From an uncultured Planctomycetales bacterium (GTDB lineage: Bacteria; Omnitrophota; Gorgyraeia; Zapsychrales; Aceulaceae), in the NCBI GenBank assembly GCA_964648665.1, contig CAZYOA010000002.1, positions 75,002 to 139,001 on the forward strand: a stretch of 64,000 bases of DNA. Reading direction: 5' to 3'. This document shows positions 607-49,413 of the stretch, in pieces. Numbering within the stretch: position 1 is the first letter of the stretch; each line of letters begins with the position of its first letter. The notes beneath the pieces were generated by a model. It saw only the letters and a list, made by a program, of their open reading frames with translations. It was not told the origin of the DNA and ran no database searches. A program made the translations under genes and the position numbers.

Positions 607-643
607 GTCTCTCCTTTTTAAGGGCCAAATTTTACCTTAAAAT

Positions 644-787
644 AAAAAAATCTTTATTCTCAATAACCGAAAATAAAGACTTAAAATATTTTTTATATTC
701 TTTCGGTAGTTCAGCCCTCTGTATCTATAAGATACAGAGCTGTAGCTTTGCGTGCTTGCCTTACGACAAGGTTGCCTTTATCAAGAA
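644..787 (-). promoter_or_regulatory. c-di-GMP-I (GEMM-I)-like riboswitch, copy A: aptamer ~700-787, intrinsic terminator ~644-679
   Basis: Minus-strand read: UUCUUGAUAAAGGCAAC-CUUGUC-GUAA-GGCAAG-CACGCAAAGC-UA-CAGCUCUGUAUC-UUAUA-GAUACAGAGGGCUG-AACUACCGAAAG. This is followed by UCUUUAUU-(13 nt)-AAUAAAGA-UUUUUUU, an SD and the ATG at 606. The order of conserved blocks (GGCAA, GNRA-capped hairpin, ACGCAAAGC, bulged hairpin, CUACCGA) matches GEMM-I as I remember it. Confidence 0.7.
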
Positions 788-911
788 TGCGCTTAACGCT
801 TTCATACAAAGAACGAAATTTCTTATCCTTAGAAAAGATAGCACATAATACTTACAATGTAAGGGGTTAAAGCTATTTTTATGAAAGCGCTTTCTTTTTT
901 TAGAATAATTT

Positions 912-947
912 TATAGAAAAAGGCCGGGTTAAAATCTAACCCGGCCC
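912..947 (-). terminator. Rho-independent terminator (GC-rich hairpin + U-tract) after the gene relic
   Basis: Minus strand: GGCCGGGUU-AGAUUUU-AACCCGGCC followed by UUUUUCUAUAAAA. The stem is 9 bp and perfect (922-930 / 938-946). Confidence 0.65.
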
Positions 948-1082
948 AAATTATATATTCTTTAAGAATCTGCTGAATTGTTAAACTGTAATTTTCAGAG
1001 ACTTTCTTTGTAATTATCCTATGTAGAAATCTTTATTTTAACATTCTTCTAATTTTTATGATTACTTCCTGCCCTCTATATT

Positions 1083-1265
1083 TTAATCAATATCAATATA
1101 ATCATTTTTCTTCATAGAAAACAAATACGTTCGACCGGCCTCAAATTGTCCAATTTCATCAATCCAGACACCATCAACTTTTTCAATATATTTTTCACCC
1201 TGTATATCCTCGACATGCCAAATAGCATCATTATCTGGGTCAATCAATTCAGCTATTGTATCCAT
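1083..1265 (-). pseudogene. Relic of the C-terminal domain of a subtilase-type paralogue (60 codons)
   Basis: MDTIAELIDPDNDAIWHVEDIQGEKYIEKVDGVWIDEIGQFEAGRTYLFSMKKNDYIDID matches the last 60 residues of the 1476-aa protein at 5856-10286 in 53 of 60 positions (counted by eye). The frame stays open upstream to about 1400 with decayed similarity (ESFYAGLQRPDGNA vs ELFSGYNFIGFLADKNA). There is no other start and no SD, and it lies directly after the upstream gene's terminator. Confidence 0.7.
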
Positions 1266-1417
1266 CGCATTTCCATCTGGCCTTTGAAGGCCAGCGTAAA
1301 AGGATTCATTTGCGTATTTTCTTCTTTTGTTGTCTGATTTTCTAAATTCATAATATTGTAAAATTATAACATACTTTCGAGGAAAGGTTAATTTAGAAGA
1401 AATATTTTATTTTATTA

Positions 1418-1456
1418 ATAAAAAAGCTTAGGCCGGGTTAAAATTCAACCCGGCCC
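1418..1456 (-). terminator. Rho-independent terminator after the C25-like peptidase gene
   Basis: Minus strand: GGCCGGGUU-GAAUUUU-AACCCGGCC (1431-1439 / 1447-1455), then UAAGCUUUUUUAUU. It is the same hairpin as at 922-946. Confidence 0.55.
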
Positions 1457-1520: not shown

Positions 1521-4500
1521 TCATTGATCCGTTGAAGTTCCGATAAAATTCTGCTGTATGTCATTTTGAATATTAGAGATATTTAAAATCGAAGGTTCAA
1601 AGGTGTGTCCCGGAGCTTGGGGAGTTAATGTTATATTTGAACCTGGGTAGGCCAGGTATGCATAAAATGTTCCAGACAAAAAAACCTCACCAGTTCCTCC
1701 GGTTGCGCTTAAACTGATACCCGGAATAGCGAAGTAATTATTTGTTATAGTTCCTGAAACCATGTAAGCTTGAAGGGGTAAATTGCAAGAAGAAGTAACT
1801 TTAACATGATAGCCTTTGCCGGGTTTCAAAGATCCGATTTCATTAATCGATTGGCCATTTACTAGGCTAAGGGAATTATTATCTTCATCAACAGCTTGCA
1901 CAAAAACATCAGAGTCAATTAAAGGCTGAAATATCGCAGCAGCATCTATTTCATTTATTAATGGAAATCCAATAATATTCCATCCCTCGTTTAGAGTTAA
2001 AATTGTTTCATTTGGATCCAATGGAGCTTGATTACCGGCTATAGAAAAATTGACATTAGAATTCATCTTAATCTGATATCCTTCATTTATGTTCATTTCT
2101 CCAATAGTGTCAATATTGTAATCTGGCCAAATTACGCCTATATGATCATCTTTAATAATTTCAACTTGATTAATAATAGGATTAAGAATATTCGCTAAAC
2201 TCATATCATCGCATACTATGTTAAAAGAAATTAAATTCCACCCTTCTTTTAACTCAAAAAATTGAGAAGAATCGTAGGCACTAAAGTTTTGAATAACATT
2301 TTCTGGGTTAGCTTGAAGGATTGCGCTTTCCGGATCAAATATATAATCTTCAAAATTGGGTGTAACTGTCCAAGTTGTACTCCATGTCGAATTACCGGGA
2401 AGATCGAAAGAATAATATCCCTGGTTATTAGTTGTTGCATGAAATTGCCGAGAATAATTAGGGCTAGTTGCAATAACGGAAACATATTTTAAAGGTTGAC
2501 CATTCTTCAAGATAAATCCAGAAATCCGAAAAGCCAGTGTCACACAAACCTCGACCAATTTTTTATTTTCTGCATTCAGTTCTCCGTCAAAAACATTAAC
2601 TAACAAATCATAGGAACCTGTCTCTAAAGCTTTATTTGTGGTTATCGCTCCAGTGCTAGAATCAATTGCAAAAAACTCTTCTTCATTGCCTGATTCAAAA
2701 AAGTAAGTTAAATCTTGATATATTCCATCATCAAGAGCCTCTACATCAAAAACGTAACTGCCGATGTTTGCTAAAGTAGTCATATGCTTGAAACCTGTAA
2801 GTGTATCAAAATATGGAGGATCGTTGACTAGCTTTACTGTAATTATCATAGATTCAGAATCTTCTAAAATAGGTGTGCCATTATCCGAAACATTAAATGT
2901 TATCGAATGATCACCTGTTTGATTAAAATTTGGTGTCCAGCTAAATATTTGAGTTTCAGTGTTAAAAGTTGCACCTTCAGGTAAATCGTTTGCTGAAAAT
3001 ATTAAAATATCCTCAGAATTTGGATCAGTTGCTGATAGCGCAAATTCAATTGTATTTTCAGCCATGCATCCCTTGTTGCCAATAGGGCTTAGTATTGGTC
3101 GACTATTAAATTCAGAGAAATTGAAACGATATTCAGGGTCTCCCAATAAATTTGTGGTTAAATATACATATCTATAGCACTCATCCATTGCACTCGAAAT
3201 TAGTCCATTATTCTTTTCATGACTATAAGAATTTAACCTGCCAAGTGACTTTTCCGCAGGACCGCTAACATTGTTAAATGCTCCATCCCAAAACCATCTA
3301 CCAAATGTTTGAGATGCTCCATTTGTTGAATAAGCAGAAAACCATCCAAAGCGACTATTCATAACTGTTGCAAAAGCTCCTGTTATCGGTGAAGAAGTAA
3401 GCAATTTTTCTGAGATCGAATCAGTGTTGAGAGTCGTTGTGTAGGGATTTTCATTGTCAAAAGCTCCTGAATAGCATCCGTGCGAATAAATGAATATTGG
3501 TCTTTGATTGTCTAAATCCGAAACATCATCTAAGCTCATTTTCATGACCATTGTATTAGTGGCGTGGCCTGTGTGGTTAATATAGAATGCCCCTTCATTA
3601 ATTCTTGTCATTACTTCATCCATATTCCATTGATATTCAGGGGGGCTGTTTGGTGATCCTGCGGGAGGAGTATCGCAAAGCATATCAACTTCTTCTGGGT
3701 AATATGCTTCAATAAATCCAGAAGTTCCAGAGGGAATAGATCCAAATTTAATTTCTTCTATTTCAGCGATTGCGTATTTATATATTCCATAGTAAAGTCC
3801 TGCATATTCTCCTAACATTAAAGGATCTAAGCGTTCATTATTTGGTTGAGCGAGAATAGTTTTTTGAACAAAATTATCAGCTTCGGTTATACTATCTACA
3901 GGCGCTCGTCCAACAAAAACATCTGAAAAAAGATCAATGTAAATATTGATATCGTCAATTTCCATAAAAGAATTATTATTGTTTGAATCGAATCCTCCGT
4001 CTAGGTTTGAATAGTACAAATCAGATGGGATCTCTGTTTGTCCAAAAGCTGCAGGACAAGTCCCTAAATATCTAACTGGTACAATAGGTAGCTCTGTTTG
4101 TCCTCCTGCCAATGATTTATCCGCATCTCCACCAAGTAAAACGTATTCTGTAGAAAGTTCTTGATAGGCGTATCGAATATAATTTCTTATTTTTGCTGCC
4201 TTATCATTAAATTGATTAAATGATCCGCAAGTGTCTCCCCAATTATAAGGACCCGTGCAACTATAATCAGAGTCATCGTAAATATCTTCTACTGTGACGA
4301 CACAAGCTGAGATCGGATTTGTAAGTCTACTTTCTTTGTAATCGGCAAACACCTGAAAAGAAAGTGCAAGATTTTCATCTGTTATGATGAGGTATTGGCA
4401 TTCCTCTCTTGATGGATCCATAGGGTTGCGATCTATCGGATAACTATCTAAGATATATGATTTAATTTCTCTTTGATTTTTCGGTAAGTTTTCTAAAGCC

Positions 4501-5378
4501 GTGCTTTTATCAACTATTTTAGAATTTTCCTTTTTGGCATTTTGTTCATTGGTATTGGCTGTAATATCTGATAAAAATTTATCTAGAATTATTTCTCTGT
4601 CTGTCTGCTTTCCTCGATATCCATGTTCGATAGGCGCAGCTTTTGGTTTTAAAGTTATAGTTATGGTTTTATAATATGAAATTTTGCCATTTTCTGGAAT
4701 ATATTCAATTGGGCATAAGTTAAATGTATAAAAAACAAATCCTCTGTCGACTTGTTTGGCAGGGTTCGTATATGTTCGTTCAGGATATTTATTTTTTGAT
4801 AGATAAATCATTTCATTAGGCATTGCGGATGAAACATCGAAGCCCGCATCGATTAATTTTTGTTCCGGTAGAATAGGAAGCTGCTTCTCTCCATAACTGA
4901 GCTTATGTTCACTGGAGAGCGTTACGCGCTCGCCAAGAGTAATGGTGTAGCTGTCCAGTTTTGTGGCAAACGGTAAAAGAACTTTTGCGTATCGAATCGG
5001 AATTTCTGGTTTTCCTTCTTCGCTTTGAATTTGAGTCGCTGGCATGCTAATTTTATTATAACCATTTTCAAGAGGAATAAAAGTTGGTTCATCAAAAGTG
5101 TATACAATGGTAATTGTCTCACTCTTTCCGGTTTTTTTAGGAATTCTTGAAAGATCTAAAAGATTTTTTAATGGATCAATGGACGATTTTTCTTCATCTT
5201 TTATATATTCCTCAAATGGCAAGATTTTTTCAGATTGCTCAGTTTTTTCAGATTTAGATGCCAAATTGCGACTAAAGGCGCTTGTTGCTTTTCTTGTCTG
5301 TGATAAAACTTGATTTGGCGCTAAAAAGCTTAAAATTATGAGCAACGCTAAACATTTGGTTGATAAATTATTTTTCAT
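1521..5378 (-). CDS. Exported multidomain cysteine peptidase, C25 (gingipain)-like, with cadherin-like / Ig-like modules and two C-terminal GWN repeats
   Basis: Signal peptide MKNNLSTKCLALLIILSFLAPNQVLSQ. Clan-CD His/Cys context INHTGHATNT ... RPIFIYSHGCYSGAFD resembles the C25 NYxGHG ... ACxxGxF pattern. Cadherin/dystroglycan-type modules: SATDPNSEDILIFSANDLPEGATFN..FSWTPN and FFAIDSSTGAITTNKALETGSYDLLVNVFDG. CarboxypepD_reg-like module: ISGFILKNGQPLKYV..TNNQGYYSF. GGGAG SD precedes the ATG. Confidence 0.6.
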   Translation of the reverse strand: MKNNLSTKCLALLIILSFLAPNQVLSQTRKATSAFSRNLASKSEKTEQSEKILPFEEYIKDEEKSSIDPLKNLLDLSRIPKKTGKSETITIVYTFDEPTFIPLENGYNKISMPATQIQSEEGKPEIPIRYAKVLLPFATKLDSYTITLGERVTLSSEHKLSYGEKQLPILPEQKLIDAGFDVSSAMPNEMIYLSKNKYPERTYTNPAKQVDRGFVFYTFNLCPIEYIPENGKISYYKTITITLKPKAAPIEHGYRGKQTDREIILDKFLSDITANTNEQNAKKENSKIVDKSTALENLPKNQREIKSYILDSYPIDRNPMDPSREECQYLIITDENLALSFQVFADYKESRLTNPISACVVTVEDIYDDSDYSCTGPYNWGDTCGSFNQFNDKAAKIRNYIRYAYQELSTEYVLLGGDADKSLAGGQTELPIVPVRYLGTCPAAFGQTEIPSDLYYSNLDGGFDSNNNNSFMEIDDINIYIDLFSDVFVGRAPVDSITEADNFVQKTILAQPNNERLDPLMLGEYAGLYYGIYKYAIAEIEEIKFGSIPSGTSGFIEAYYPEEVDMLCDTPPAGSPNSPPEYQWNMDEVMTRINEGAFYINHTGHATNTMVMKMSLDDVSDLDNQRPIFIYSHGCYSGAFDNENPYTTTLNTDSISEKLLTSSPITGAFATVMNSRFGWFSAYSTNGASQTFGRWFWDGAFNNVSGPAEKSLGRLNSYSHEKNNGLISSAMDECYRYVYLTTNLLGDPEYRFNFSEFNSRPILSPIGNKGCMAENTIEFALSATDPNSEDILIFSANDLPEGATFNTETQIFSWTPNFNQTGDHSITFNVSDNGTPILEDSESMIITVKLVNDPPYFDTLTGFKHMTTLANIGSYVFDVEALDDGIYQDLTYFFESGNEEEFFAIDSSTGAITTNKALETGSYDLLVNVFDGELNAENKKLVEVCVTLAFRISGFILKNGQPLKYVSVIATSPNYSRQFHATTNNQGYYSFDLPGNSTWSTTWTVTPNFEDYIFDPESAILQANPENVIQNFSAYDSSQFFELKEGWNLISFNIVCDDMSLANILNPIINQVEIIKDDHIGVIWPDYNIDTIGEMNINEGYQIKMNSNVNFSIAGNQAPLDPNETILTLNEGWNIIGFPLINEIDAAAIFQPLIDSDVFVQAVDEDNNSLSLVNGQSINEIGSLKPGKGYHVKVTSSCNLPLQAYMVSGTITNNYFAIPGISLSATGGTGEVFLSGTFYAYLAYPGSNITLTPQAPGHTFEPSILNISNIQNDIQQNFIGTSTDQ

Positions 5379-5404
5379 GCCATTCTCCCTTTAAAATTTA
5401 TTTA

Positions 5405-5543
5405 TCAATAAAAAATCCTTATTCTCGATAAACCGAAAATAAGGATATATTTTTCCTTTCGGTAGCCTCAGCCCTCTATGTGCTTGCATAGAGCTGAACA
5501 GCTTTGCGTCCTTGTCTCACAACAAGTTTGCCTTTATCGAGAA
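5405..5543 (-). promoter_or_regulatory. c-di-GMP-I (GEMM-I)-like riboswitch, copy B: aptamer ~5455-5543, intrinsic terminator ~5405-5446
   Basis: Minus-strand read: UUCUCGAUAAAGGCAAA-CUUGUU-GUGA-GACAAG-GACGCAAAGC-UGUU-CAGCUCUAUG-CAAGCA-CAUAGAGGGCUG-AGGCUACCGAAAGG. This is followed by AUCCUUAUU-(14 nt)-AAUAAGGAU-UUUUUUAUU, a GGGAG SD and the ATG at 5378. Confidence 0.75.
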
Positions 5544-5659
5544 AATAAAAAAATATTTTATAAAAGAACATGTATTGTTTCTAATTTAAGTATATCTTAT
5601 AAATTTACAAAAACAATGGATAGGCAAGATTTTATGAAAGCGTTTTCTTTTTTTATGAG

Positions 5660-5702
5660 TTTTTATAAAAAAATAAGTCGGGTTAAGAATTTTAACCCGG
5701 CC
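5660..5702 (-). terminator. Rho-independent terminator after the S8 subtilase gene
   Basis: Minus strand: GCCGGGUUAA-AAUUC-UUAACCCGAC (one G-U pair), followed by UUAUUUUUUUAUAAAAA. Confidence 0.6.
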
Positions 5703-5855
5703 CAAATTACATATTTTTTTTAAAAATCTACTGAATCGTTAAGTTGCAATTCTCATCGACTTTTACAGCTATCTCCAAGCAAAAAATTGTTATTTTAATG
5801 TTCTTTTGATTTTATGACTGTTTCTTGCCTTCTATCTTTTTAAAAGAAATTCATT

Positions 5856-8800
5856 TTAATCAATATCAATGTAATCTGTTTTTTTCATAGAAAATAAATA
5901 TGCTCGACCAGCTTCAAACTGTCCGATTCCATCAATCCAGACACCATCAACTTTTTCAATGTATTTTTCACCTTGCACATCCTCAACATGCCACAGAGAA
6001 TCATTGTCAGGATCGATTAGCCCGGCTATGGTATCCATCGCATTTTTATCTGCTAAAAATCCAATAAAGTTATAACCTGAAAAAAGTTCAACATTTGTTT
6101 GTCCCAAGTACAAAGTTCCTGCAAGTGTCATGGTCGTAGCAGAATTCAACTGGATTACAACACCATTTCCTGGGCTTAAAGGTTCCGTAAAATTATTTAC
6201 TCCCGAACCTGGATTAAAGAAGTTATAATTTCGGTCATAAGCCATCTGCAAATTTCCCTCTGCCACTAATGGTGCTAGCAAATCTTCTATTAGCATACTT
6301 TCGGCTTGAACTGTTGGAGCAAAAAAATTCATACCCGCATCAAATGTCAAATTTTGTGTAATAATGGCCACTTCGTAGCGATAAATCAAATCAAATGCAT
6401 TTGAGACTTTTACTTGATAACCTTTTCCCGGCTGCATTTGTCCAATTGTGTTGATGTTCGTTTCCGGCCAATAGACATGTCCTTGCCCATCTTGAACGAC
6501 AATAATATCCTCTTGATGTCCTGCAAAGACATCTTCTATATTAAAAGGTTGATCCAGCGGATACCCAATCATTTGCCACCCTGGAGACAATGTAACAGTA
6601 GTAGGTAAAGATACAGGATTAGCCACCAAAGAAAGAGTGGCTTGCTCATTGACTTTAACTTGATAGCCTTCCTTGACATCAATTTCGCCAATCGTATTGA
6701 TTCCATATTCTGGCCAAAAAACATGTCCTGAGTCACCCTTGATAATAACAAGGTTCCCTTGAGAAATAAGCGGCGCAAAAATACTCTCAACCGACATATT
6801 TACTGGTTCGACATTAAAAGAAATCATATTCCATCCAGCATTAAAATGTATCTCTTGGGAAACAGCCGACATGCCTGTGGAGTAATTCTGAACAATATCC
6901 TCATTGACGGATGTGTAATATATTGGCGTGAGTGGATTAAAAGTGTAGCCTTCTTTGAATGTTTCTACTGTTCCAGACCAGTCCTGTTGAACAACAAAAC
7001 GATATGTTCCATCAGCTCCTGTGGTAATAGGTGTTATATTGGGGTCGTTGGTAGTCACCAAAACCCCTTCCAAAGGGGCCCCATTTTCTGAAACAACACC
7101 TTGAATATTATATCGGGAAAGAATAAATGCATTTCCCGAGCCGAAAAAGTTTCCTAATCCATAAGCATTTCCAATGAGCATTTTACTCTCTGATAGCGCA
7201 ACTTGAGTACCAAACGAACCCAATTCGTTCTCAGGAGGAACAATCCGAGTTGTCTCTGTCTCTGGCCATGCCCCAGATGAATTACGGGTATACAAATAAG
7301 TTGCATTTCCTAAGGACCCTCCGTAAGACCCTACAAGAATTATGTCATCTTCTATTGCAACAGATCGACCAAAACATCCACCTTGTATACCATCGCTGGG
7401 TAGAATCTTGCGTGTTTCATTCTCGGGCCAGTTACCATCGGAATTCTCAACAAAAATATAAGCTGCTCCTAAATTTGAAGCAATAGAATCATCTGTGTGA
7501 GCTCCTACGATGGCGGTATTTCCAGATAAAGAAACTTGGGCTCCAAATGAACTTTGAGAACTACCGTCACTTGGAAGTATTTTTTGTTCTTCTTCCCATA
7601 AGGCAGTGTTTTCGTTTAATTTAAAAATATAAGCAGCTCCAGCATTGGTTCCGTTTGTGTCGTCGTTAAAATCTCCGATAACAAGCGTATCTTCTTGAGT
7701 TGAAATTGATGTTCCAAATTGATTACTATTCTTGCTGTCATTTGGAAGTATTATGCTATTAGCAATGGGAGGAAATGTACCTTGAGCATTTCGTTTAAAT
7801 ACATAAACAGCTCCTGTTGAAGCGCCAGATATAGATGAGTTTCCATCTCCAATAAAAAGTGTATCTTCTATTAAAAAAACAGAACCTCCAAAATGAAAAC
7901 TAGCTTTTTGTTGATTGTTCCAATTTATTCTTTGTGTATAGGTTTCTGGCCACGTACCGTTTAGGTTTTGTTCATAAATATAAACATAAGAAAAGCTTCC
8001 GACAATAATGGTGTTATTTGAAGCACTGACAGATAATCCATAAACAGTCGCCTCTGGATTAGGATTTACTAATGCCTTGCTTTCAAAGTGAGGCCAATTG
8101 CCATCTTCATCCTTGGAATATATATAGGCGCTACCGAAATAATTATTTGTAGAAGCGCAGCCTATAACAGCCTTATCTCCTTGTATAGCTATTTGATAAA
8201 ATCCAAACCCACTACCCGAAGAAACATCAGATCCAATTATTTTTCCGTTTTCCCAATTGTTAACAACTCTTTTGTAATCCTCGTAAACATCACCAGCCTG
8301 ACTGGAAACTGACAGCTTCAAGTATAGTGGTGTTGCTTGCTCCAAGACATTAAGCGTTGCTAAAATAGGATATTCTATTTCACCCCCAGTTCCTGCCTCA
8401 GGGTATTTCTCGCCAAATGTGATATTATCTGCAACCATCCAAGGCCCCTCTAGAGATAAAGCATATTCCACTGTATAAGAGTTAAAAGACTCGCCGTAAG
8501 CAACACCTCTTATTTCAATAATTTCATTTTCAAAATATTGCTTAAAATTTTTCGGAGAAAATATTTTTGCCGCTAATGGCGTTGAAACATCTAAAGCTGC
8601 ATCTGCATTTAACATTCCATGCCCAAATGTTTCATCAAATCCTGAATCGCTAAAATTAACAGCTGAAAATCTTAGAGCAGATCGCATTTGCTCAGGAGTA
8701 AATTCAGGATGCAAAGCCCTCATTAAAGCCAATGTGCCAGCTACATGCGGAGCCGCCATAGATGTTCCATTTGATCGATAATAAATATCGTCTACAATGT

Positions 8801-10286
8801 GTTCTCCATTTTCATAAAAATCAGTATTTCTTGCTCTTAAAGATAGGATTTCAACTCCGGGAGCGGTAACATCAACCTTCATCCCAAAATTTGAAAAGTC
8901 AGCTTTTTCAGAATTAGAATCAATCGCCGCGACTGCGATAACGCTCTGCAGATTCGCTGGCATAAAAGCACTTGTTTCAAAATCGCTATTGCCCGCACTT
9001 GCAATATTCACACATCCACTCGCTTGAGCAAGGGCAAATGTATCTTCAAGAATTTGGGAGTATCCTCGCCCAGACCAAGAATTGTTTAATAGATCAGCAC
9101 CATTTTCAACAGCAAAATATATGGCTGAAGCGAGATCATCCTCATAGCCGTCACCTTGTGAATCTAGTCCTTTGATTGCCATAATTTCTGCTAAAGGAGC
9201 AACTCCAATGATGCCTATTCCATTTTCTTTTGCCGCGATTGTTCCTGCGCAATGCGTTCCATGTCCGTGATCATCCATAGGATCTGTGTCTTGATTAACA
9301 AAATCATATCCGTATTCATTTTGATCGTTCTGCCACATGTTTTCGAAAATATCAGGATGAGTGTAATCTACGCCAGAATCAATAACAGCAACAATGACAC
9401 CTTGACCCTTTGATTTTGCCCAGGCACCATTATCTTGCAATGGATCTCCCGTATGAAGAAAGTCTGGTGTGAGGCCATACATATCTCTATAGCTATTGCC
9501 CCAGCTACCAGAGGATGAATAATAAGGATCATCTGGTTCATAAAAAGCATAATATTTCTTAACATAATCAACAAATTCAACATTGTCATCTGATTCATAC
9601 ACTGCTTTTATTTGTTCAATATTGAAAGATTTGTTGTTAAATTCCATAACAAAAATAGAAGAAAGTCTGTGAAGATATTTTACCTGAAGATCAGCATTTG
9701 CGCTTTGTGAGCGATTATAAAATCGTTTATTCATATTTATAACTTTTTCTGTGAGCTCAAGCTCTTTCTCTTTTTCAAAATCAAGAGCTATCTTAGAAGT
9801 TAAAGGGCCTGTAAAAGAATCAATTGAATGTTTTAAATCTAAATCAATTAAAGGCTTTATTTCTTTAAGGTCGTATTTCTTATTTAAATTATCCAAATCA
9901 CTATTGCCTGTAATCTGAGAAAATCCATTCTTTTGACTTGCAAGTTTCTCAGCAACAACAGAAAGCCCACTTCCCTCTTTAAAACGGATAAATAATCGAT
10001 TGTCTCTATACTCAACTGTGTCTGGCGCTTTCATTACAGCAGGAGTTTTGCCAATTTTATTATAGCTATTTTCTTTTTCTTGCTGATGTTTTAATAATTC
10101 ATGAAATTCTTTAAGGTGTAGACTAGATTCAAAATTATCCTTAAGAGGCTTAAAAGATAATTCTTTAATAGAAAACTTGCTTTGTCCGTTTGCCAAAACA
10201 AGCTCAGGTAAAAAGCAAGCTCCTAAGATAAAGATAGTTGCTGTTAAGCAAAGAAATATTGTTATTGCATTTCTTTTATATTGCAT
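5856..10286 (-). CDS. Exported S8 subtilisin-family serine protease fused to a 7-blade FG-GAP-like propeller, a CarboxypepD_reg-like module and four C-terminal GWN-type repeats
   Basis: N-terminal hydrophobic signal or anchor: MQYKRNAITIFLCLTATIFILGA. Catalytic triad motifs: VAVIDSGVDYTHPD, HGHGTHCAGTIAA, GTSMAAPHVAGT. Seven repeats of type FGxSVxxxxxxxxVGxxxxxxxxxxGAAYIFxxxxxGxWPE. Confidence 0.85.
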   Translation of the reverse strand: MQYKRNAITIFLCLTATIFILGACFLPELVLANGQSKFSIKELSFKPLKDNFESSLHLKEFHELLKHQQEKENSYNKIGKTPAVMKAPDTVEYRDNRLFIRFKEGSGLSVVAEKLASQKNGFSQITGNSDLDNLNKKYDLKEIKPLIDLDLKHSIDSFTGPLTSKIALDFEKEKELELTEKVINMNKRFYNRSQSANADLQVKYLHRLSSIFVMEFNNKSFNIEQIKAVYESDDNVEFVDYVKKYYAFYEPDDPYYSSSGSWGNSYRDMYGLTPDFLHTGDPLQDNGAWAKSKGQGVIVAVIDSGVDYTHPDIFENMWQNDQNEYGYDFVNQDTDPMDDHGHGTHCAGTIAAKENGIGIIGVAPLAEIMAIKGLDSQGDGYEDDLASAIYFAVENGADLLNNSWSGRGYSQILEDTFALAQASGCVNIASAGNSDFETSAFMPANLQSVIAVAAIDSNSEKADFSNFGMKVDVTAPGVEILSLRARNTDFYENGEHIVDDIYYRSNGTSMAAPHVAGTLALMRALHPEFTPEQMRSALRFSAVNFSDSGFDETFGHGMLNADAALDVSTPLAAKIFSPKNFKQYFENEIIEIRGVAYGESFNSYTVEYALSLEGPWMVADNITFGEKYPEAGTGGEIEYPILATLNVLEQATPLYLKLSVSSQAGDVYEDYKRVVNNWENGKIIGSDVSSGSGFGFYQIAIQGDKAVIGCASTNNYFGSAYIYSKDEDGNWPHFESKALVNPNPEATVYGLSVSASNNTIIVGSFSYVYIYEQNLNGTWPETYTQRINWNNQQKASFHFGGSVFLIEDTLFIGDGNSSISGASTGAVYVFKRNAQGTFPPIANSIILPNDSKNSNQFGTSISTQEDTLVIGDFNDDTNGTNAGAAYIFKLNENTALWEEEQKILPSDGSSQSSFGAQVSLSGNTAIVGAHTDDSIASNLGAAYIFVENSDGNWPENETRKILPSDGIQGGCFGRSVAIEDDIILVGSYGGSLGNATYLYTRNSSGAWPETETTRIVPPENELGSFGTQVALSESKMLIGNAYGLGNFFGSGNAFILSRYNIQGVVSENGAPLEGVLVTTNDPNITPITTGADGTYRFVVQQDWSGTVETFKEGYTFNPLTPIYYTSVNEDIVQNYSTGMSAVSQEIHFNAGWNMISFNVEPVNMSVESIFAPLISQGNLVIIKGDSGHVFWPEYGINTIGEIDVKEGYQVKVNEQATLSLVANPVSLPTTVTLSPGWQMIGYPLDQPFNIEDVFAGHQEDIIVVQDGQGHVYWPETNINTIGQMQPGKGYQVKVSNAFDLIYRYEVAIITQNLTFDAGMNFFAPTVQAESMLIEDLLAPLVAEGNLQMAYDRNYNFFNPGSGVNNFTEPLSPGNGVVIQLNSATTMTLAGTLYLGQTNVELFSGYNFIGFLADKNAMDTIAGLIDPDNDSLWHVEDVQGEKYIEKVDGVWIDGIGQFEAGRAYLFSMKKTDYIDID

Positions 10287-38929: not shown

Positions 38930-41900
38930 CTACGAATTTTCCTTGTTTGCTACTAATTCTTGAGAAAGCGCGATATCTTCATTAGTGTTTGGTTCATTTT
39001 CATCTAGCCCAAGCAATTGATAAATATTTGTCATCGGTGTAATGCTTATGCTTGCAGGAATCAATCCTGGTAAATCTTGAAGATTCATTCCTTGCCACTC
39101 AACCGGAACGTTAAACTCTATCGACGACGACCCCCTCTTTTCAATATCCAAATATTCAGCATTAAAATCAATACCCCCAACATTAGAAGAAGCTGTTGCA
39201 GAGGCTTGAGAAGAAGCCATGTGTCCTTGAGCCAAAACAACTTCTTGATCTTGCTTCAAAATACTTGGTATCCTTTTCTTGTCTGCAATTTCATTTCTAA
39301 TCGTATAGCTTCCTCTTTGACCGCTTAAGAATTGATCAAGATTATCTCTTTGTTTTTGATTCTTTAAGAAAATAAAGATTTTATTTTTCCCCACTCTTTC
39401 ATAGTCAAATTTCATTTTATTAATAGCATTAATCACATATTTCCTTGAATCAATTTCTAGTCCGAACATATCGTCCCGATAGCTCAATGCATCAGAAAGA
39501 TTATAACGTAAGTCTTCTGCAGTTATGTCATCGCCAATATTTTGACTTTCAATATAAATTTTAGCCATATGCACAAGGCGATTAAAACTAGCTTGGTTCA
39601 TGTTGTCTAAACAATTTTCATCATTTTCATTATAAAAAATTAAATTTTTCTTTACTTCATTTAAAGACTTTATTCGACCAGAAGGTTGATCGTAACTAGC
39701 CATATAAATTTTTTCGAATGCTTTGCCTAAGGATCCTGGCTCAACAATAATCCGGCCATTTTTTTGAGTTTTTCCTGATTGCATAATAATCTGCTCAACC
39801 CCAACACCTTTAATTCCTGCATTATCCCCTTTATAAGACTGAACAATTTCCTGCATTAGAAATTTCAAGATTTTAATATCCGACACAATCTCTCGTTCGA
39901 TACTGTCTCCAAACTTTTGCTTAATTTGAGAAATTTGATTATTAACAATATCAGCATAAAGAACATCTTTTTTCCCTATCGAGATCTCGATTTTCGTCTC
40001 ATATCTACTAGAATCGTTTGATTTTAAAAGAAAACTGATTAAATTTGTACTTGGAGTATGATTCCTTTTATATCTAATCCCTACACATCGTGAATGCGAA
40101 CGAAACGCATTTAATATTTTCTCTCCAGTTTCAATATCTGATTTATCAGCTGAAACAAAAATATCAATATCGTATTTTCCTGGTAAATCCATGTCTCTTG
40201 AAGTTGATCCTTGATTTACAATATCGGTTTTCAAATCTAAATCATTCAATTTTGAGAATATAAAATCACTAGCCTCTTCTCGCCTTTGATTTTCTTTAAA
40301 AAACAATTTTAAACGATTTGATAAATCTGCAATCGAAACTAAAGAATTTTTTTGACTTCTCTGCACTTTTGCTTGAACGCTTAAGCTTATCTTTAGTGCG
40401 CTTAGATCAATATCTGAATAATCCCCTTCTTCAGTGGTGTCTTTTCGAAGTTCTTGGACATCTTCAAAATAATCTAAAAGCGTTTTTCCCTCTACAATCC
40501 ATGGATGCTCAATAAAATCAGCGACTGACTCAAGGCTTTCAGGATCTAATTCTTCTCCTTCATACTTTTGACCAATTTGCACATCAGGAATTATCCTCCG
40601 AGTAGATATACTTTTTCCACTAACTGTCGTAGCTTTTCTATGATATTTACGAATAACCTCAATATTTTCACTCTCATTAAGCAATGCTTGCTGAATGATT
40701 TCTTTATTATCTTGATTTTCCTTGTAATCTGCGCTAATCAAATCAAAAAATCTTTTTGATCCGTCTGTTTGCATCTGTCCAAGCAAAAGTTTTAGATAGT
40801 CACTCTTAAGCCCTGTTTTCTTAAAATCTTTTAAAATATTGATTTGCTGATCAAGAAGAGCTTGAAGATTATTAAAATCTTTTTTATTTATTTCTCCTCG
40901 TTGAAGCGCTTTTAAAATATAAAAAATATTATCTTTTGCAATTCTCTCATATTTTTGCCATCGTAAAATCTTTAAAATATATGAATTTGCTGTTTGCAAC
41001 CCAAAATCGTCTTTCTTTTTCCTCAAATCGCTTTGAAGAAAATCTCCTGCCAAAATACTTCTTTTTCGGGCATATTCTTCTAGCGGATTTCTCCCACGCT
41101 TAGCGTCATAAAACGCTAAAGCAACATTGCGATCAGGTTCTCTTTGTCCTTTAAGTAAAACATTGTCAAATTCATGCAAAGCTTTCGGCCCAAGCCCGCC
41201 TTTAAGGGCATCTTTAGCTTCTCCTCCTTTACGCAAATAATGGAACAAAGCTGATGTTAGGGCATACGATAAATAATTTGCCTCGATATGATCCTGCTCT
41301 GCATAAGCGCGATAAGCACTAGAGATTGTGTTTAAATATTTTGGAACTTTATGTCCGTTAAATTCTTTAAGTTCATTAATTTCTTTAAACCTTTCCAAGG
41401 TCTCAGAAATTTTCTTTTCGCCAAAAATATCAATCAAGAAATTATTAATATTTTCTTCATTCTTTAAAAAATATGAGCCAATCTTACTCTCCAAACTACT
41501 CATTCCATTCGGTACTTTCTTGCTCCCCATATGCTCTTCAACCAAACTTGTTGATAAGCTGACAAGGCTATTTAAAAACACTTCGGATATAATTTGAAGG
41601 ATATATTGAAAATCCTCTTCACTATGTTCAGTCATTTTTCTTAAAGTTGCTGCTGCCGACACTTTTTCTATAGAAGAATCAATATTTGTAGCAGAATAAA
41701 CAAGGGATGACAGATGTATATACTTCTTAAGATGCTCTCTCTTGTCTGCAGCATTTTCATCCAAAATACCTTTGACTCCGTTTCGTCCAATCCATGATAA
41801 AATATGAATAGCTGATTCAGAGTTTTTTAATGCAGATTCTTTGAGAAATTGGTTAATAACAAAAGCAAGGCTATATATATCATTAATATTTTCTATCCAC

Positions 41901-44900
41901 CCTTTATGAGCTAAACATTCAAAAAGAACAATTGATAAAAAGGGATCATTTTTTTGCAATAACGGCTTCATTGTATCAATAACTTTATTAAAATTGGAAC
42001 GCATTTCCGAGACAGGTTCGTTTAATAAAAATTTTAAGAAAACACTTAATCCTGAATAATTTTTTCGGTAAACTTCCAGATTCTTATAAATTTCTAATTT
42101 ATCTATAATCTTACGGAACATGTCTTGGTTTTCTTTAATTGCAATACCAAGATCCAAGTTCGAATTTTTTATAACATCAAAGATTTGATCTTGATCATCG
42201 TTTTCTGCGTTTAAAGAAGCTAAAATAAAATCTGGAAGAAATCTTTGATTATTTTTAAAAGATGTTTTTATTGAAGAAAAGAGAGCACTTTTAGCCTCTT
42301 GAGATTTAATCTGAAGAGTTTTTTTGATAACAATTGGAAAAAGATTTGGATTTCGAGAAAGTATCTCATTAACGAAATCAGGCGAAGATAGAATTAAGGA
42401 ATCGAAATAATTAGGATACGTAGATAAAATTTTACCGATACTTAAAATCAACGCTTTCCTAGCTTTACTTCTCTTGTTCTGCACAAGAGGTGCATATTTT
42501 AAATAAGAAATAAATTCTTCCTCTGTAAACTTTAAGTTTGGATTAGAACCAAAAGAAAAATTAACAACTCTTGCCAAACTTTCTACATCGCTATACACAT
42601 CATTTACAAATTTATTCGGATCAACAAGATTCTTCATGGCATTAAAAAGATGCTCAAACTGAGACTGTGTAACAACCGTGTTCGATCCCGAAGAATCATC
42701 TTCACTGAGAGAAATAGAGTGCAGTAAAAATGAAGTGTCTGAATCTGAAAAAGTTTTTGTCAATAATATTCTGTATACTTGACCAGAGAATTCAGCATTA
42801 ATCCCATAAGGCAAAGAACGTAATGATTTTATTAAAAATTTCTTCATCTTATTTGAAGAAGCATTTTCCAGATGATTTAACAGCTCTTCGCTCACACTTG
42901 CGTTCCCTAAGGCCGAAGCAAGCTCTGATAATATAGAATCTTCTATCTCTCGATTCTCAACCTCTTTTAAAAAAAACTCTAATGAAGCGGAATCTTTGCC
43001 TAAAAATTTGCCAAGGCCTGAAATAAAATTAGTTTTGGAGGTATAACCATTCGTATCAAGCCTGTCGTATGTTGAAGTAACTTTGCAAAGATCAAGTATT
43101 TGAGACATTGTTATTTCAATGTTGTCATCTTTAAGGCTGCTCCCTATCGCCTCGATTAAATTATTTTGAATTGCGCGTGTTCGATGAAAACTTAAATCGT
43201 TAAAATAGGGATTATCATAATTCGTTTTTGTCATATTCGGAATCATTGATAACATATCCTCAGCTAAGTCAGGATTATTTGAAAGAATAAATCCAAGAAA
43301 CCACGACATCTCGTATCTTTTCCAGACATCCGTTCTTTCAAAAATAACATCAGATTTTAAAATATTAGTTAAATCTTCTTTTTTTAGTTTAATTTCTTTT
43401 TTACGTGAAAGGGAGTCCCACAGTGAACTAATTAGTGCCCTTCCTCCTATTCCTTTCGCTTGACTAATCTTTTTTATAACAATTGGGAGAAAATCCAAAT
43501 TAGCATTTATTGCTGAAGTAAGGCACCGAGATAAAAATTCTTCAACGTCGCTTGCGCTATCTTTTTGAATACCCAAATAATTCTGTGTTCTATTAAATAT
43601 TTCTGGATTACGAATCATGGCAGATCCTAACATGGCTTCAACAAATGTATTACCAGCATTTGGTTTGTAAATATTAATGTGATCAATAACATATTCAATA
43701 GAATCAAGACTTAGCTCAAAGTTTTTATCTTGTAAAAGAATTCTAGTCAAAGGATCAAAAATCTCACTCCCTGCTTCATTATTATCAGAATAATCTACAG
43801 TCTTGTTTAATAAATAATTATGCTTTAACGTAAGTTTATCATTTCTTAAATCTAATATTATTTTAAGCCGAGAACCTTCGGGTCCATGAAATATCATTGT
43901 TTGGTTGTCAAGCTCGACTCTAACGTTTTTCATTTTTGATAAATACTCTAAGAAATTCTTATAGAATCTTGCTGTCGCTTCATCCCGATTAATGACGTAT
44001 CCAGCACTTCCTAAAATTAATAACGCCAAAGATCCACTTAAATATTTAAGAATTCCTTTTGATTCTTTTGCAGTTTCAAGATACCTCTTAACAATATTTC
44101 TTTGAGACTCTATATACGCTGTATCATTGACAAGATTAGAATCCACATAAAGAATATAACCCTTTTCTCCCTGATCGAATACAGATCGCCCTTCGTGCTC
44201 TAACAATCCTTGTACAGGAATAACGTGCACCTTAACATCTTCGTTATCAATTCTATAAGTATGTATTGGATATTTCGCAACAAGATCAGAAGCCAGAGCA
44301 GCGCCGTCCTCCTTTACAGGAGCCTCTCTAAGCTCTTCGGGCACGTTGTTGTAAATATAGTTATAAATACCGAGATTTCCCGTTTGGCTAATGGTGTTCT
44401 CGGAAAGAGATGGCACAGCTGTATTACTAGCTGATGCAGGAGATTTATTGAATGTATCTGGCAGTCTATGCGATTCAGGGTCAAGCTCAGAAGTAGCTGA
44501 TGTTGTTTTCGGCACAGCCAATACGACTGAAGCTCTAAACCCAAGACCAACGATAACGGATTGAGCTGTATTTTTTAGAGCTCTCAAAGGTCTTTTAATA
44601 ATTGAAGACGAAACCTTGCTCCCCTCAAAACCACCTGAGAAATATTTACGGGTTACATATTTCCTTAAATACGGATCATATTCGGTTTTTAGATAATTAA
44701 CGACACCTTTTTCATGAGCAGCAAGATATTGATTATAAATATTATCAACATTAACAGGACGCTCATCTGGCATCTGAATACCAGCAACCTTATTTTTATC
44801 CGCATAAACTTTTGTAATAATCGAATTGCGCAAAGCTTGCTTGTACCAAGTCGCCAAAACCATGGCATGAAATATCTGACGTAATTGAGCAAAATTCTTA

Positions 44901-45679
44901 CCCTCATTAACCTCTTTTTCTAATAAAGGAATAATGACTTCTTTGGCAATCGACGCGCTTAAGTTATTATCAGCTCGTGTATTCGCTTGTCTTTCTTTTT
45001 CTTGATCTGAATTATCTTTTTTTGTGTCTTTTTTATTTTCAAGGGCTAAATAATCCTGCTCCATCATAACTTTCAAATAACTATCAGTTAGAAAAACCTT
45101 GTCTCGATCTTCATAAATCACTGCCTTTTGAGGAACAATCCAAACCTTGTTAAACGTATCAATAGGAATATTTGTTGTTCCGTATTCCTCATATGCCTTT
45201 TTATATACTTTTCCCCAGAATTCTTTTCCAAAATCATTTTCTGGATAAATCAAAGAAGACATAATTTGCTTTAGAATATAATCTTGAGCTAGGAGATCTA
45301 CACCCATTTCAGTCTGGCCTAAAGCATTAGGAATAATACGATTTTCTTCATAAGGAGATAAATTGACCCACAAATCGTTTTCTGGGATAGTTAAGGCAGC
45401 TAAGAAATATTTAACAATTTTTTCTGATTCTTTCTTTAGCTGATCCCCTTGAAGCTTTGTATTTCCAGAATCAACAATAAAATCAAATTTAAGAGAGTTT
45501 TCAGGATAAACGCGCATTCCACGAAGAATGGCTGGGGTAAAAGCCGGGCTTAAATTAACCATTGCCCCTGGATGAGGAAGCCCTATAACACCTTGAGCGT
45601 AGGCTTGAGATGGGACAACAACAGTTGCAAAAAAACAGATGAGTATTAAAATCGATATCGTTTTATTAAAAAATTTCAA
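38930..45679 (-). CDS. Giant (2249 aa) orphan protein: signal peptide, N-terminal exported domain, one candidate TM helix, long helical-repeat region, Pol-beta-type nucleotidyltransferase core, C-terminal GGIDFN module
   Basis: Uninterrupted 6.75-kb ORF. TTG start with GGGAGAG SD 5 nt upstream. MKFFNKTISILILICFFATVVVPSQAYAQG is signal-peptide-like. Hydrophobic LSGSLALLILGSAGYVI lies at about aa 550. NTase motif NQGSTSRDMDLPGKYDIDIFV lies at about aa 1820-1842. Confidence 0.85.
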   Translation of the reverse strand: MKFFNKTISILILICFFATVVVPSQAYAQGVIGLPHPGAMVNLSPAFTPAILRGMRVYPENSLKFDFIVDSGNTKLQGDQLKKESEKIVKYFLAALTIPENDLWVNLSPYEENRIIPNALGQTEMGVDLLAQDYILKQIMSSLIYPENDFGKEFWGKVYKKAYEEYGTTNIPIDTFNKVWIVPQKAVIYEDRDKVFLTDSYLKVMMEQDYLALENKKDTKKDNSDQEKERQANTRADNNLSASIAKEVIIPLLEKEVNEGKNFAQLRQIFHAMVLATWYKQALRNSIITKVYADKNKVAGIQMPDERPVNVDNIYNQYLAAHEKGVVNYLKTEYDPYLRKYVTRKYFSGGFEGSKVSSSIIKRPLRALKNTAQSVIVGLGFRASVVLAVPKTTSATSELDPESHRLPDTFNKSPASASNTAVPSLSENTISQTGNLGIYNYIYNNVPEELREAPVKEDGAALASDLVAKYPIHTYRIDNEDVKVHVIPVQGLLEHEGRSVFDQGEKGYILYVDSNLVNDTAYIESQRNIVKRYLETAKESKGILKYLSGSLALLILGSAGYVINRDEATARFYKNFLEYLSKMKNVRVELDNQTMIFHGPEGSRLKIILDLRNDKLTLKHNYLLNKTVDYSDNNEAGSEIFDPLTRILLQDKNFELSLDSIEYVIDHINIYKPNAGNTFVEAMLGSAMIRNPEIFNRTQNYLGIQKDSASDVEEFLSRCLTSAINANLDFLPIVIKKISQAKGIGGRALISSLWDSLSRKKEIKLKKEDLTNILKSDVIFERTDVWKRYEMSWFLGFILSNNPDLAEDMLSMIPNMTKTNYDNPYFNDLSFHRTRAIQNNLIEAIGSSLKDDNIEITMSQILDLCKVTSTYDRLDTNGYTSKTNFISGLGKFLGKDSASLEFFLKEVENREIEDSILSELASALGNASVSEELLNHLENASSNKMKKFLIKSLRSLPYGINAEFSGQVYRILLTKTFSDSDTSFLLHSISLSEDDSSGSNTVVTQSQFEHLFNAMKNLVDPNKFVNDVYSDVESLARVVNFSFGSNPNLKFTEEEFISYLKYAPLVQNKRSKARKALILSIGKILSTYPNYFDSLILSSPDFVNEILSRNPNLFPIVIKKTLQIKSQEAKSALFSSIKTSFKNNQRFLPDFILASLNAENDDQDQIFDVIKNSNLDLGIAIKENQDMFRKIIDKLEIYKNLEVYRKNYSGLSVFLKFLLNEPVSEMRSNFNKVIDTMKPLLQKNDPFLSIVLFECLAHKGWIENINDIYSLAFVINQFLKESALKNSESAIHILSWIGRNGVKGILDENAADKREHLKKYIHLSSLVYSATNIDSSIEKVSAAATLRKMTEHSEEDFQYILQIISEVFLNSLVSLSTSLVEEHMGSKKVPNGMSSLESKIGSYFLKNEENINNFLIDIFGEKKISETLERFKEINELKEFNGHKVPKYLNTISSAYRAYAEQDHIEANYLSYALTSALFHYLRKGGEAKDALKGGLGPKALHEFDNVLLKGQREPDRNVALAFYDAKRGRNPLEEYARKRSILAGDFLQSDLRKKKDDFGLQTANSYILKILRWQKYERIAKDNIFYILKALQRGEINKKDFNNLQALLDQQINILKDFKKTGLKSDYLKLLLGQMQTDGSKRFFDLISADYKENQDNKEIIQQALLNESENIEVIRKYHRKATTVSGKSISTRRIIPDVQIGQKYEGEELDPESLESVADFIEHPWIVEGKTLLDYFEDVQELRKDTTEEGDYSDIDLSALKISLSVQAKVQRSQKNSLVSIADLSNRLKLFFKENQRREEASDFIFSKLNDLDLKTDIVNQGSTSRDMDLPGKYDIDIFVSADKSDIETGEKILNAFRSHSRCVGIRYKRNHTPSTNLISFLLKSNDSSRYETKIEISIGKKDVLYADIVNNQISQIKQKFGDSIEREIVSDIKILKFLMQEIVQSYKGDNAGIKGVGVEQIIMQSGKTQKNGRIIVEPGSLGKAFEKIYMASYDQPSGRIKSLNEVKKNLIFYNENDENCLDNMNQASFNRLVHMAKIYIESQNIGDDITAEDLRYNLSDALSYRDDMFGLEIDSRKYVINAINKMKFDYERVGKNKIFIFLKNQKQRDNLDQFLSGQRGSYTIRNEIADKKRIPSILKQDQEVVLAQGHMASSQASATASSNVGGIDFNAEYLDIEKRGSSSIEFNVPVEWQGMNLQDLPGLIPASISITPMTNIYQLLGLDENEPNTNEDIALSQELVANKENS

Positions 45680-48726: not shown

Positions 48727-49281
48727 TTATTTATTAAATAAATCTCCGACCTTAACATTCTCACGTTCATTTTTAGCAGCAGCAAAAACAACTTTGCGAC
48801 GATATCCCATTGCAGAAGCCATAATATTTGTCGGTAACATTTCAACGGAATTGTTATATTCGGTGACAGCTGCATTATAGCTTCGACGAGCAGCTGAAAT
48901 TTGCTCTTCAACTTCATTAAGAGTTCCCTGTAGCTGAATAAAGTTTTGGCTTGCCTTAAGATCAGGATAATTCTCAACAGCAACCATAATCCCGCCTAAA
49001 GTTTTTGTAATTTTATTATCCAGATCAACTCGTTCATCAGATGATAGATTTCCAGCGACAGCTTTAGCGCGAAGCTCGGTAATTTCTGTTAGGGTATTTG
49101 CCTCATGTTGCATATACTGCTTTACGGTGTTAACAAGATTTGGAATAAGATCATATCTCTTTTTTAACATGACATCGATAGAAGAAAATGATTTCTCGAC
49201 ATCGTTTTTTCTTCCGATCAAAGTGTTGTACATTCCAAATAATACGAGACCGACAACAGCTAAAATTATGAATAATAACAT
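48727..49281 (-). CDS. lemA: LemA family protein
   Basis: N-terminal TM helix, then YNTLIGRKNDVEKSFSSIDVMLKKRYDLIPNLV and YPDLKASQNF blocks. Confidence 0.85.
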   Translation of the reverse strand: MLLFIILAVVGLVLFGMYNTLIGRKNDVEKSFSSIDVMLKKRYDLIPNLVNTVKQYMQHEANTLTEITELRAKAVAGNLSSDERVDLDNKITKTLGGIMVAVENYPDLKASQNFIQLQGTLNEVEEQISAARRSYNAAVTEYNNSVEMLPTNIMASAMGYRRKVVFAAAKNERENVKVGDLFNK

Positions 49282-49413
49282 TTACCCTCCTGTTTTTAAT
49301 TGTTTGAATCATTTTATCATTAATTAACAACATCACCAACGAGTTTTGAATAAAAAAAGAGCCAGCGCTTTTGAGCACTGACTCTTAAAATAGCAATATT
49401 ATAAATCGCCTTT

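Follow-up and report, generated by a model that had tools for sequence, protein, structure and literature searches.

Layout of the locus

The locus described here lies in a stretch of 64,000 nucleotides (nt) of contig CAZYOA010000002.1 from an uncultured Planctomycetales bacterium (hereafter 'the window', whose coordinates are used throughout; G+C content 35%). All of its relevant genes are on the minus strand, and listed 5' to 3' they encode a subtilase (A), a secreted C25 peptidase (B) and a secreted β-helix protein (C). Genes B and C each stand behind a leader with a riboswitch for c-di-GMP (cyclic diguanosine monophosphate), and between them is found a 60-codon open reading frame (ORF) which matches the end of gene A. 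It is the history of this 60-codon stump that is at issue here: the original prediction took it for the footprint of a duplication which had placed a riboswitch-controlled leader in front of gene C, whereas the evidence collected below makes it, in our assessment, reasonably probable that the locus consists of two old paralogous units, the second of which bears a recent recombination scar that truncated its own subtilase-type gene (A'). The features of the locus are as follows.

10286..5856, minus strand: gene A, S8 subtilase of 1476 amino acids with FG-GAP repeats and four C-terminal domains of 80 residues (Pfam), its last ~65 codons (6052..5856) corresponding to the stump
5855..5704, minus strand: 3' untranslated region (3'UTR) of gene A, counterpart of 948-1082 (alignment)
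About 5703..5677, minus strand: terminator hairpin T after gene A (placed at 5699..5679 by the hairpin search)
Down to 5543, minus strand: promoter region of leader L2, with a 26-nt block at 5655..5630
5542..5458, minus strand: c-di-GMP-I aptamer of leader L2 (Rfam RF01051, 57.0 bits)
5457..5379, minus strand: expression platform of L2, with its terminator at 5446..5406
5378..1521, minus strand: gene B, secreted C25 (gingipain-type) peptidase of 1285 amino acids behind leader L2 (Pfam Peptidase_C25, E 1e-47)
1456..1430, minus strand: terminator hairpin T downstream of gene B, with 93% identity to that at 921-947
1407..1267, minus strand: repeat R, a promoter-like segment of at least 141 nt, 100% identical to a segment downstream of gene C
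1279..1083, minus strand: stump consisting of the last ~65 codons of a subtilase-like gene, the 60-residue ORF being 1265..1083
1082..948, minus strand: copy of the subtilase 3'UTR, 74% identical with one 17-nt indel
947..921, minus strand: terminator hairpin T after the stump, GGGCCGGGTT..AACCCGGCC followed by a T-run
920..787, minus strand: promoter region of leader L1, with a 26-nt block at 902..877
786..702, minus strand: c-di-GMP-I (GEMM-I) aptamer of leader L1 (Rfam RF01051, 59.2 bits)
701..607, minus strand: expression platform of L1, with terminator (680..639), antiterminator partner UUUUCGGU (673..666) and ribosome-binding site
606 to beyond position 1, minus strand: gene C, secreted β-helix protein behind leader L1, its first 202 codons lying in the window

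The assignment of gene A to the S8 subtilases rests on a Peptidase_S8 match above the Pfam cutoff (E 1e-58, 199.5 bits), and the product of gene C, rightly described before as a β-helix protein, exhibits Pfam matches to DUF1565 and to Pel9A-like β-helices. Its full length of 839 amino acids is seen in contig L002 (ENA ERZ27316756), a separate MEGAHIT assembly that is 100% identical over 6134 nt and presents, in this order, the end of A, L2, B, the stump, L1 and C. On record, gene C is complete only in ENA, and the contigs at NCBI (147,698 nt) and JGI (61,382 nt) probably end inside it, possibly at window position 1. Genes B and C are preceded by the ribosome-binding motifs GGGAG and AGGAG, respectively; their products have in common the C-terminal ~200 amino acids only (47% identity), the catalytic parts being unrelated. 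A domain of ~80 residues (GWNxIxF ... GxGYxVK) for which there is no Pfam family is located at the C-terminal ends of all three proteins, with four copies in A (window 5859-6854), two in B (1770-2264) and two in C (about 7560-8045 of L002), and comparison of its AlphaFold 2 model (predicted local distance difference test score, pLDDT, 75) with the PDB yielded no fold match (best E 0.38).

An old repeat of gene end, terminator and riboswitch leader

When positions 560-1520 were compared with the window using blastn, 645-1279 aligned with 5410-6052 at 72.8% identity over 666 columns (E 2e-95), which is well beyond the extent of the hairpins, and a global alignment obtained with MAFFT extends the similarity as far as the two start codons (606 and 5378). 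Duplication of a module comprising a gene end, a terminator and a c-di-GMP-I leader is thus real, and it is old. The limits originally given for it (607-1320 as a copy of 5379-6075) require correction: the direct, diverged copies on the minus strand are 607-1279 and 5379-6052, and 1280-1320 is part of another repeat, R. Terminator hairpins excepted, blastn detected no further copies of the module in the 64-kb window.

Each copy comprises, in order, the last ~65 subtilase codons, the 3'UTR, a terminator hairpin, a 26-nt palindromic block, a c-di-GMP-I aptamer and a terminator/antiterminator platform; as stated in the original prediction, both hairpin and riboswitch leader belong to the copied unit, since hairpins and Rfam aptamers are found in both copies. 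The degree of conservation varies markedly along the module. The coding parts are 83% identical (30 differences in 180 nt, no indels) and the segments from stop codon to T 74%, with a single 17-nt indel, the T hairpins are 88% identical in the module alignment, and the segments between T and aptamer only 58% overall, the ~85 nt that follow the 26-nt block (the 3' half) being essentially unalignable. Identity amounts to 75% for the aptamers and to 62% for the platforms, and at 35% the first 60 nt of B and C are not homologous. The 26-nt block TAAAAAAAGAAA(G/A)CGCTTTCATAAAA (877-902 and 5630-5655, minus strand) is 96% identical between the copies, carries the palindrome GAAAGCGCTTTC and may represent an operator or promoter element.

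The 3'UTR between the subtilase stop codon and the terminator (135-155 nt) is conserved to 74%, compared with 63% at third codon positions. For 948-1082 and 5704-5855 a common structure is predicted which includes three compensatory pairs, albeit from two sequences only, and the subtilase 3'UTR may harbor an RNA element. Within the window, the T hairpins, four in number, occur at this locus only, and inspection by eye of the one after gene C reveals that it is flanked on the left as are those after A and the stump, and on the right as is the one after B. This restriction to a single locus and the mixed flanks suggest that the terminator hairpins act as recombination joints.

Selection on the 60-codon stump

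The ORF at 1265..1083 is identical to the last 60 residues of subtilase A (10286..5856) in 53 of 60 positions, both sequences ending in DYIDID, and tblastn yields 87.5% identity over 64 residues (E 2e-34); the homology to the subtilase C-terminus recognized earlier is thus supported. The view that the ORF is a relic left by a partial duplication is at variance with the way in which the two sequences differ. Among the 30 differences, five fall on first, three on second and 22 on third codon positions; the probability of finding at least 22 of 30 at third positions is 9e-6 if changes are spread uniformly, and 0.008 if half of them are expected there. According to the Nei-Gojobori method, the nonsynonymous (dN) and synonymous (dS) divergences are 0.061 and 1.33, respectively, with a ratio of 0.046.

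Divergence was then simulated starting from the sequence of A, with the branch of A under purifying selection and that of the stump neutral for a fraction f of the time, and runs were taken to fit if they yielded seven or fewer amino acid changes and an open frame. With f = 1.0 none of 372 runs fit (18 amino acid changes on average; 70% acquired a stop codon) and with f = 0.5 none of 580, the proportion of fitting runs rising to 2% with f = 0.25 and to 33% with f = 0.1. Neutral evolution of the stump is thus rejected for more than roughly one quarter of the period after the split, and codon pattern and simulation together indicate that the 60 codons have probably been translated within a protein under selection during at least some three quarters of their history apart from A. 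Gene conversion from A does not mimic this pattern, as it resets the clock without biasing changes to third positions.

The stump resembles gene remnants and 3' pseudogene fragments in its homology to the 3'-terminal part of an intact gene, of which the last ~65 codons only are represented and the 5' part, including the first strands, is absent, but it differs from them in showing no sign of the relaxed selection expected of a decaying fragment, with neither stops nor frameshifts and a dN/dS of 0.05. When aligned with the eight domain copies in A, B and C, it is found to lack the first ~20 residues of the 80-residue domain, including the GWNxIxF motif, which in the AlphaFold 2 model (pLDDT 75) correspond to two strands and the start of a helix. 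Given this incomplete domain, the absence of a signal peptide and a merely weak Shine-Dalgarno motif (GGA), it is unlikely that the 60-codon ORF constitutes a protein by itself. A 'silent cassette' serving antigenic variation was also considered and ruled out, since selection on the stump is purifying and not diversifying.

The riboswitch leaders

Exactly two riboswitches were identified when the window was scanned with Rfam, both of the c-di-GMP-I class and both followed by a terminator platform, in line with what had been proposed for the leaders. They match RF01051 with 59.2 (L1) and 57.0 (L2) bits against a gathering score of 35, cover model positions 1-87 of 87, and in the cmscan alignments both exhibit GNRA loops (GUAA and GUGA) as well as the conserved junctions GGCAAA, ACGCAAAGC and CUACCGAA. 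The model of the c-di-GMP-I-GGC variant (RF03167) scores about equally well at both aptamers when run in E-value mode (56.9 and 52.6 bits at 701-785 and 5457-5541), which is below its gathering score of 59. In the minimum-free-energy folds each platform forms a terminator of 13-14 bp followed by a U-run, the stems differing by a U-A to C-G change, and the RNAalifold consensus contains an 8-bp helix ACCGAAAG/UUUUCGGU that is identical in both copies. It is by this antiterminator helix that the 3' tail of the aptamer, ACCGAAAG (707..700 and 5463..5456), pairs with UUUUCGGU in the 5' arm of the terminator. Stem 1 differs between the copies by one-sided changes (U-G to U-A and C-G to U-G), and the distal P2 stems, of 10 bp in L1 and of 7 bp in L2, are unlike in sequence, yet both form.

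Since paired stems and full-length Rfam matches were kept while the unconstrained spacer was randomised, both leaders appear to be old and to have been kept functional by selection ever since the split. A recent placement of the leader in front of the β-helix gene is then not tenable: L1 is itself old, as its stems exhibit one-sided or compensatory changes and its spacer retains no more than 58% identity.

Both leaders are predicted to act as transcriptional OFF switches. In the usual design of such switches, the ligand-bound aptamer keeps its own tail so that the terminator forms. Here, bound c-di-GMP would hold the aptamer's 3' tail ACCGAAAG and the downstream terminator hairpin would form, and without ligand the tail would pair with UUUUCGGU, allowing read-through into B or C. 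OFF switching has been described for class I c-di-GMP riboswitches of C. difficile, including one located upstream of the secreted protease gene zmpI (PMC6200980).

Repeat R and the junction at the edge of the stump

Beyond gene C, contig L002 continues with 194 nt after the stop codon which are a copy of the sequence following the stop codon of B, in which T is succeeded by a promoter-like site and by the beginning of a short ORF, MNLENQTTKEENTQMNPFTLA. Over 170 nt the post-B and post-C segments exhibit 96.5% identity, which rises to 100% in the 119 nt with which L002 ends. The promoter-like site of R, TTAACC-17-TGTTATAAT (1391..1363), agrees with the consensus in 10 of 12 positions and has an extended -10 element. 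On the B side the short ORF (1351..1253) runs out of frame into the stump and stops after 32 codons, 10 nt past the ATG of the 60-codon ORF.

Perfect identity has its left boundary at window position 1407, from where R spans at least 141 nt to 1267 (...CAGATGGAAATGC), 2 nt before the ATG of the stump. This extent follows from where assemblies break on the repeat. In L002, positions 8124-8242 match the repeat at window 1267-1407, and contig ends of L001, L003 and L004 were used as well: measured from 1407, a Logan contig (k=31) ends after 30 nt, L002, on the C side, after 119 nt, and two k141 contigs that MEGAHIT produced from different samples after 141 nt, at 1267. One of MEGAHIT's default k values is 119, and as the contigs thus stop at k-1, k and k for k values of 31, 119 and 141, the repeat must be identical over at least 141 nt.

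Homology to A begins at 1279 (CAGATGGAAATGCGATGG compared with CAGATAAAAATGCGATGG in A) and overlaps with R by 13 nt (1279..1267; CAGAT..AAATGC is common to both homologies), as would fit a microhomology-guided illegitimate join. A perfect 8-bp hairpin, CTGGCCTT-CA-AAGGCCAG (CTGGCCTTCAAAGGCCAG, 1294..1277), lies just upstream of the overlap and includes its first 3 nt. The upstream edge of the stump is therefore a junction with R, a feature absent from the original prediction. The weak protein similarity that the latter had noted upstream of the stump's Met does exist, but merely encodes D-NAM, about five codons (13 nt, 1279-1267); no in-frame start is located upstream of this Met, and of the other parts of a subtilase there is no trace.

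Because R is 100% identical, the truncation is recent: if R has not had time to diverge, neither has the stump had time to decay, and its differences from A would then record the divergence of A and A' as working genes. Direct repeats flank the segment comprising stump, L1 and C, with R joined to a subtilase 3' end, as is seen at the junctions of tandem duplications. The ages, on the other hand, are not those expected for a duplication in a single step. Three classes can be distinguished, that is, (i) B and C with 47% identity in their C-terminal region, (ii) the module of A-end, T and leader with 73-84% identity and a dS above 1, and (iii) R, free of differences over at least 141 nt, and these cannot all be the outcome of one single tandem duplication.

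Interpretation and alternatives

We suggest to account for these observations by two old paralogous (or allelic) units, each composed of a gene ending in a subtilase-type domain, its 3'UTR, T, the palindromic block with the promoter, a c-di-GMP-I riboswitch and an exoprotein gene. The first unit would be intact and consist of subtilase A, leader L2 and C25 peptidase B. In the second, purifying selection would have acted on a likewise intact upstream gene A' during most of the period after its split from A, until a very recent illegitimate, microhomology-guided recombination joined R, normally located downstream of gene C, to about codon -65 of A'. Only the last 60-65 codons of A' would then have survived, leader L1 and gene C presumably being unaffected by the join. 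The joined sequence might have arisen from (i) a deletion in the array combined with conversion of R, (ii) break repair with the C side as template, which would have entered at T, where the older homology lies, and left at the microhomology, or (iii) unequal recombination of two diverged haplotypes identical from 1407 onwards. The 60-codon stump is thus best read as a fresh truncation scar and not as a footprint left by the original duplication. The riboswitches are of a known class, the type of rearrangement is an ordinary one, and the locus as a whole represents ordinary genome evolution.

Several points weigh against this explanation. No intact A' was found among 5.8 billion proteins, the next relative of A being 52% identical and in the S8 domain only, and a representative library of 1.84 billion proteins holds no close match to the stump besides the stump itself. 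Likewise, no full-length protein starting with MNLENQTTKEENTQMNPFTLA is on record, so that a real gene 'D' downstream of C is unproven and the C side might bear another relic. Deletion in an old tandem array does not by itself account for R at 100% identity and needs an extra step, which could be gene conversion, repair from a template or a recombination event involving diverged haplotypes. Furthermore, 119 nt of R are seen directly on the C side and the further 22 nt are inferred from contig ends, the dS of 1.33 between stump and A rests on only ~35 synonymous sites, and the stump is embedded in a seemingly complete transcription unit with promoter, overlapping short ORF, ATG and terminator and could therefore still be functional.

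This last point leads to the possibility, which we regard as unlikely, that the stump is or has long been a functional unit in its own right, with the promoter TTAACC-17-TGTTATAAT driving a transcript in which the 32-codon ORF is coupled to the 60-codon ORF, followed by terminator T, and with a small protein or a 3'UTR-type RNA as its product. An intact ORF with an ATG, a 32-codon ORF whose stop codon lies 10 nt beyond it, a promoter-like site that is strong and has an extended -10 element, the terminator downstream, the low dN/dS and a 3'UTR with 74% conservation and three compensatory pairs are all consistent with such a unit. However, its 60 residues would lack the first two strands of the domain and a signal peptide, although the parent domain resides on secreted proteins, the Shine-Dalgarno motif is weak, and no homologous free-standing small protein was detected among the 1.84 billion representatives. 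Moreover, a promoter segment which was copied very recently (no differences in at least 141 nt) offers no basis for long-term constraint. It would go a step further, and appears quite improbable to us, to regard T plus leader as a portable joint by which exoprotein cassettes are shuffled and amplified, the junction then being a promoter-driven new unit (a 32-codon ORF coupled to a 60-codon ORF, with 3'UTR and terminator) caught at its birth as a small gene or 3'UTR-type RNA. The explanation closest to the original prediction, namely that a single old duplication copied nothing but the subtilase 3' end, terminator and leader and that the coding piece has since been a non-functional relic, is very unlikely: that homology stops ~65 codons from the stop codon, that the Met has no in-frame start upstream and that no other trace of a subtilase is found would be expected from it, yet the third-position bias (22 of 30), the dN/dS of 0.046 and the failure of all 372 fully neutral runs, 70% of which acquired a stop codon, are not, and the homology ends exactly at the 100% identical repeat, which makes this boundary a later junction and not the limit of the duplication.

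Two further explanations concern repeat R. The segment extending from R through the stump, T, L1 and gene C to the next T could be tandemly repeated or circular, the unique-looking junction then being a repeat junction. We likewise consider this to be improbable, even though all de Bruijn assemblies break at R, the identical repeat reaches into the first 13 nt of the subtilase homology and the records contain no protein 'D' that has the expected N-terminus, since a 13-nt microhomology at one single junction explains the overlap equally well and L002 is unbranched all the way from R through the stump to where gene C ends. Alternatively, gene B and the segment from stump to C could have been joined wrongly via R, which is identical over at least 141 nt and at which two MEGAHIT assemblies stop. 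There is hardly any chance for such an assembly artefact: the path leading from B through R into the stump is continuous in the source contig of the window as well as in L002, a JGI contig has the 32-residue ORF spanning the junction, and misassembly cannot produce a diverged copy of 73-84% identity.

An interpretation of the hairpins as integron attC sites was rejected. Such sites were taken to be 57-141 nt long, to be bounded by R''/R' core sites and to have an integrase in their vicinity, and the hairpins are GC stems of 27 nt followed by T-runs, that is, too short and terminator-like. No integrase domain is present among the Pfam-annotated neighboring genes (about 10.6-24 kb), and a search for a mobile-element origin gave no match in plasmids or phages.

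Comparison with known systems

The closest parallel to the leaders is Cdi-1-12 of C. difficile, located upstream of zmpI, which features the same aptamer class, a terminator directly after the aptamer, and a tail complementary to the 5' arm of that terminator (PMC6200980), and which likewise precedes a gene for a secreted protease or exoprotein. The present leaders differ from it in that the host belongs to an uncultured low-GC (35%) lineage, the regulated genes encode a C25 peptidase and a β-helix protein, and both ligand binding and the polarity of the switch are predicted from sequence. In C. difficile 630, Cdi-1-4, -5 and -7 are duplicated class I c-di-GMP riboswitch regions which were copied within the genome (PMC6200980). 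They have in common with L1 and L2 that riboswitch segments were copied within one genome, but are devoid of a detectable downstream gene and apparently non-functional, whereas here both leaders precede intact genes and exhibit compensatory maintenance.

Tandem duplication and illegitimate recombination in bacteria leave junctions at which short homologies are joined and which direct repeats flank. The junction at the stump is similar to these in that one unit's 5' end is newly joined to the 3' end of a second one, in its identical flanking repeats and in its 13-nt microhomology. It is different in that the joined units are old, diverged paralogues and not fresh copies, so that a simple tandem duplication in one step does not fit.

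The locus leaves current understanding unchanged. It provides, however, a datable case in which riboswitch-controlled exoprotein units multiplied and were then remodelled, with old leaders lying under a recent scar, and in which two c-di-GMP-I leaders have apparently been maintained for long in front of different secreted-enzyme genes. If the predicted OFF logic holds, the C25 peptidase and the β-helix exoprotein would be shut off at high c-di-GMP, as is ZmpI in C. difficile. As for method, the stump cautions that what looks like a 'relic' may turn out to have been truncated only recently, and it is the pattern of changes over codon positions that tells which.

Relatives and further observations

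The same locus sequence is present in ENA samples, one Logan run and contigs at NCBI and JGI, and the lineage is almost unsampled. The stump and gene C occur only on L002 among the records searched. Protein searches yielded no relative of A above 52% identity, with the S8 domain alone being matched, and a next-best match of 33% identity for C; matches of the stump in the representative library are weak resemblances to FG-GAP repeats. A doubled query of 21 residues, aimed at the gene downstream of C, retrieved as its sole match the 32-residue ORF spanning the junction on the B side (P0161). Nothing was found when genome contigs were scanned with protein B or with a pattern combining terminator and palindrome, nor when metagenome contigs were scanned with a 28-nt piece of R; the leader pattern produced, in metagenome contigs, one chance match within a sigma-factor gene and no riboswitch. 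The loci of three distant relatives (L006-L008) contain no c-di-GMP riboswitch, terminator hairpin or palindromic block, and no related genome that would polarise the event was found in these scans.

The further genes of the window are housekeeping genes, encoding an ABC transporter, gshA/gshB, glutaredoxin, glutamate synthase, ThiI and acetolactate synthase. An ORF of 2249 amino acids with a TTG start is located at 38930-45679 on the minus strand. Finally, a full-length match to the cspA thermoregulator, which remains below threshold (35.6 bits compared with a gathering score of 78, E 1.5e-5), is seen at 49355-49721 (minus strand), upstream of an ORF of 184 amino acids (49281..48727).

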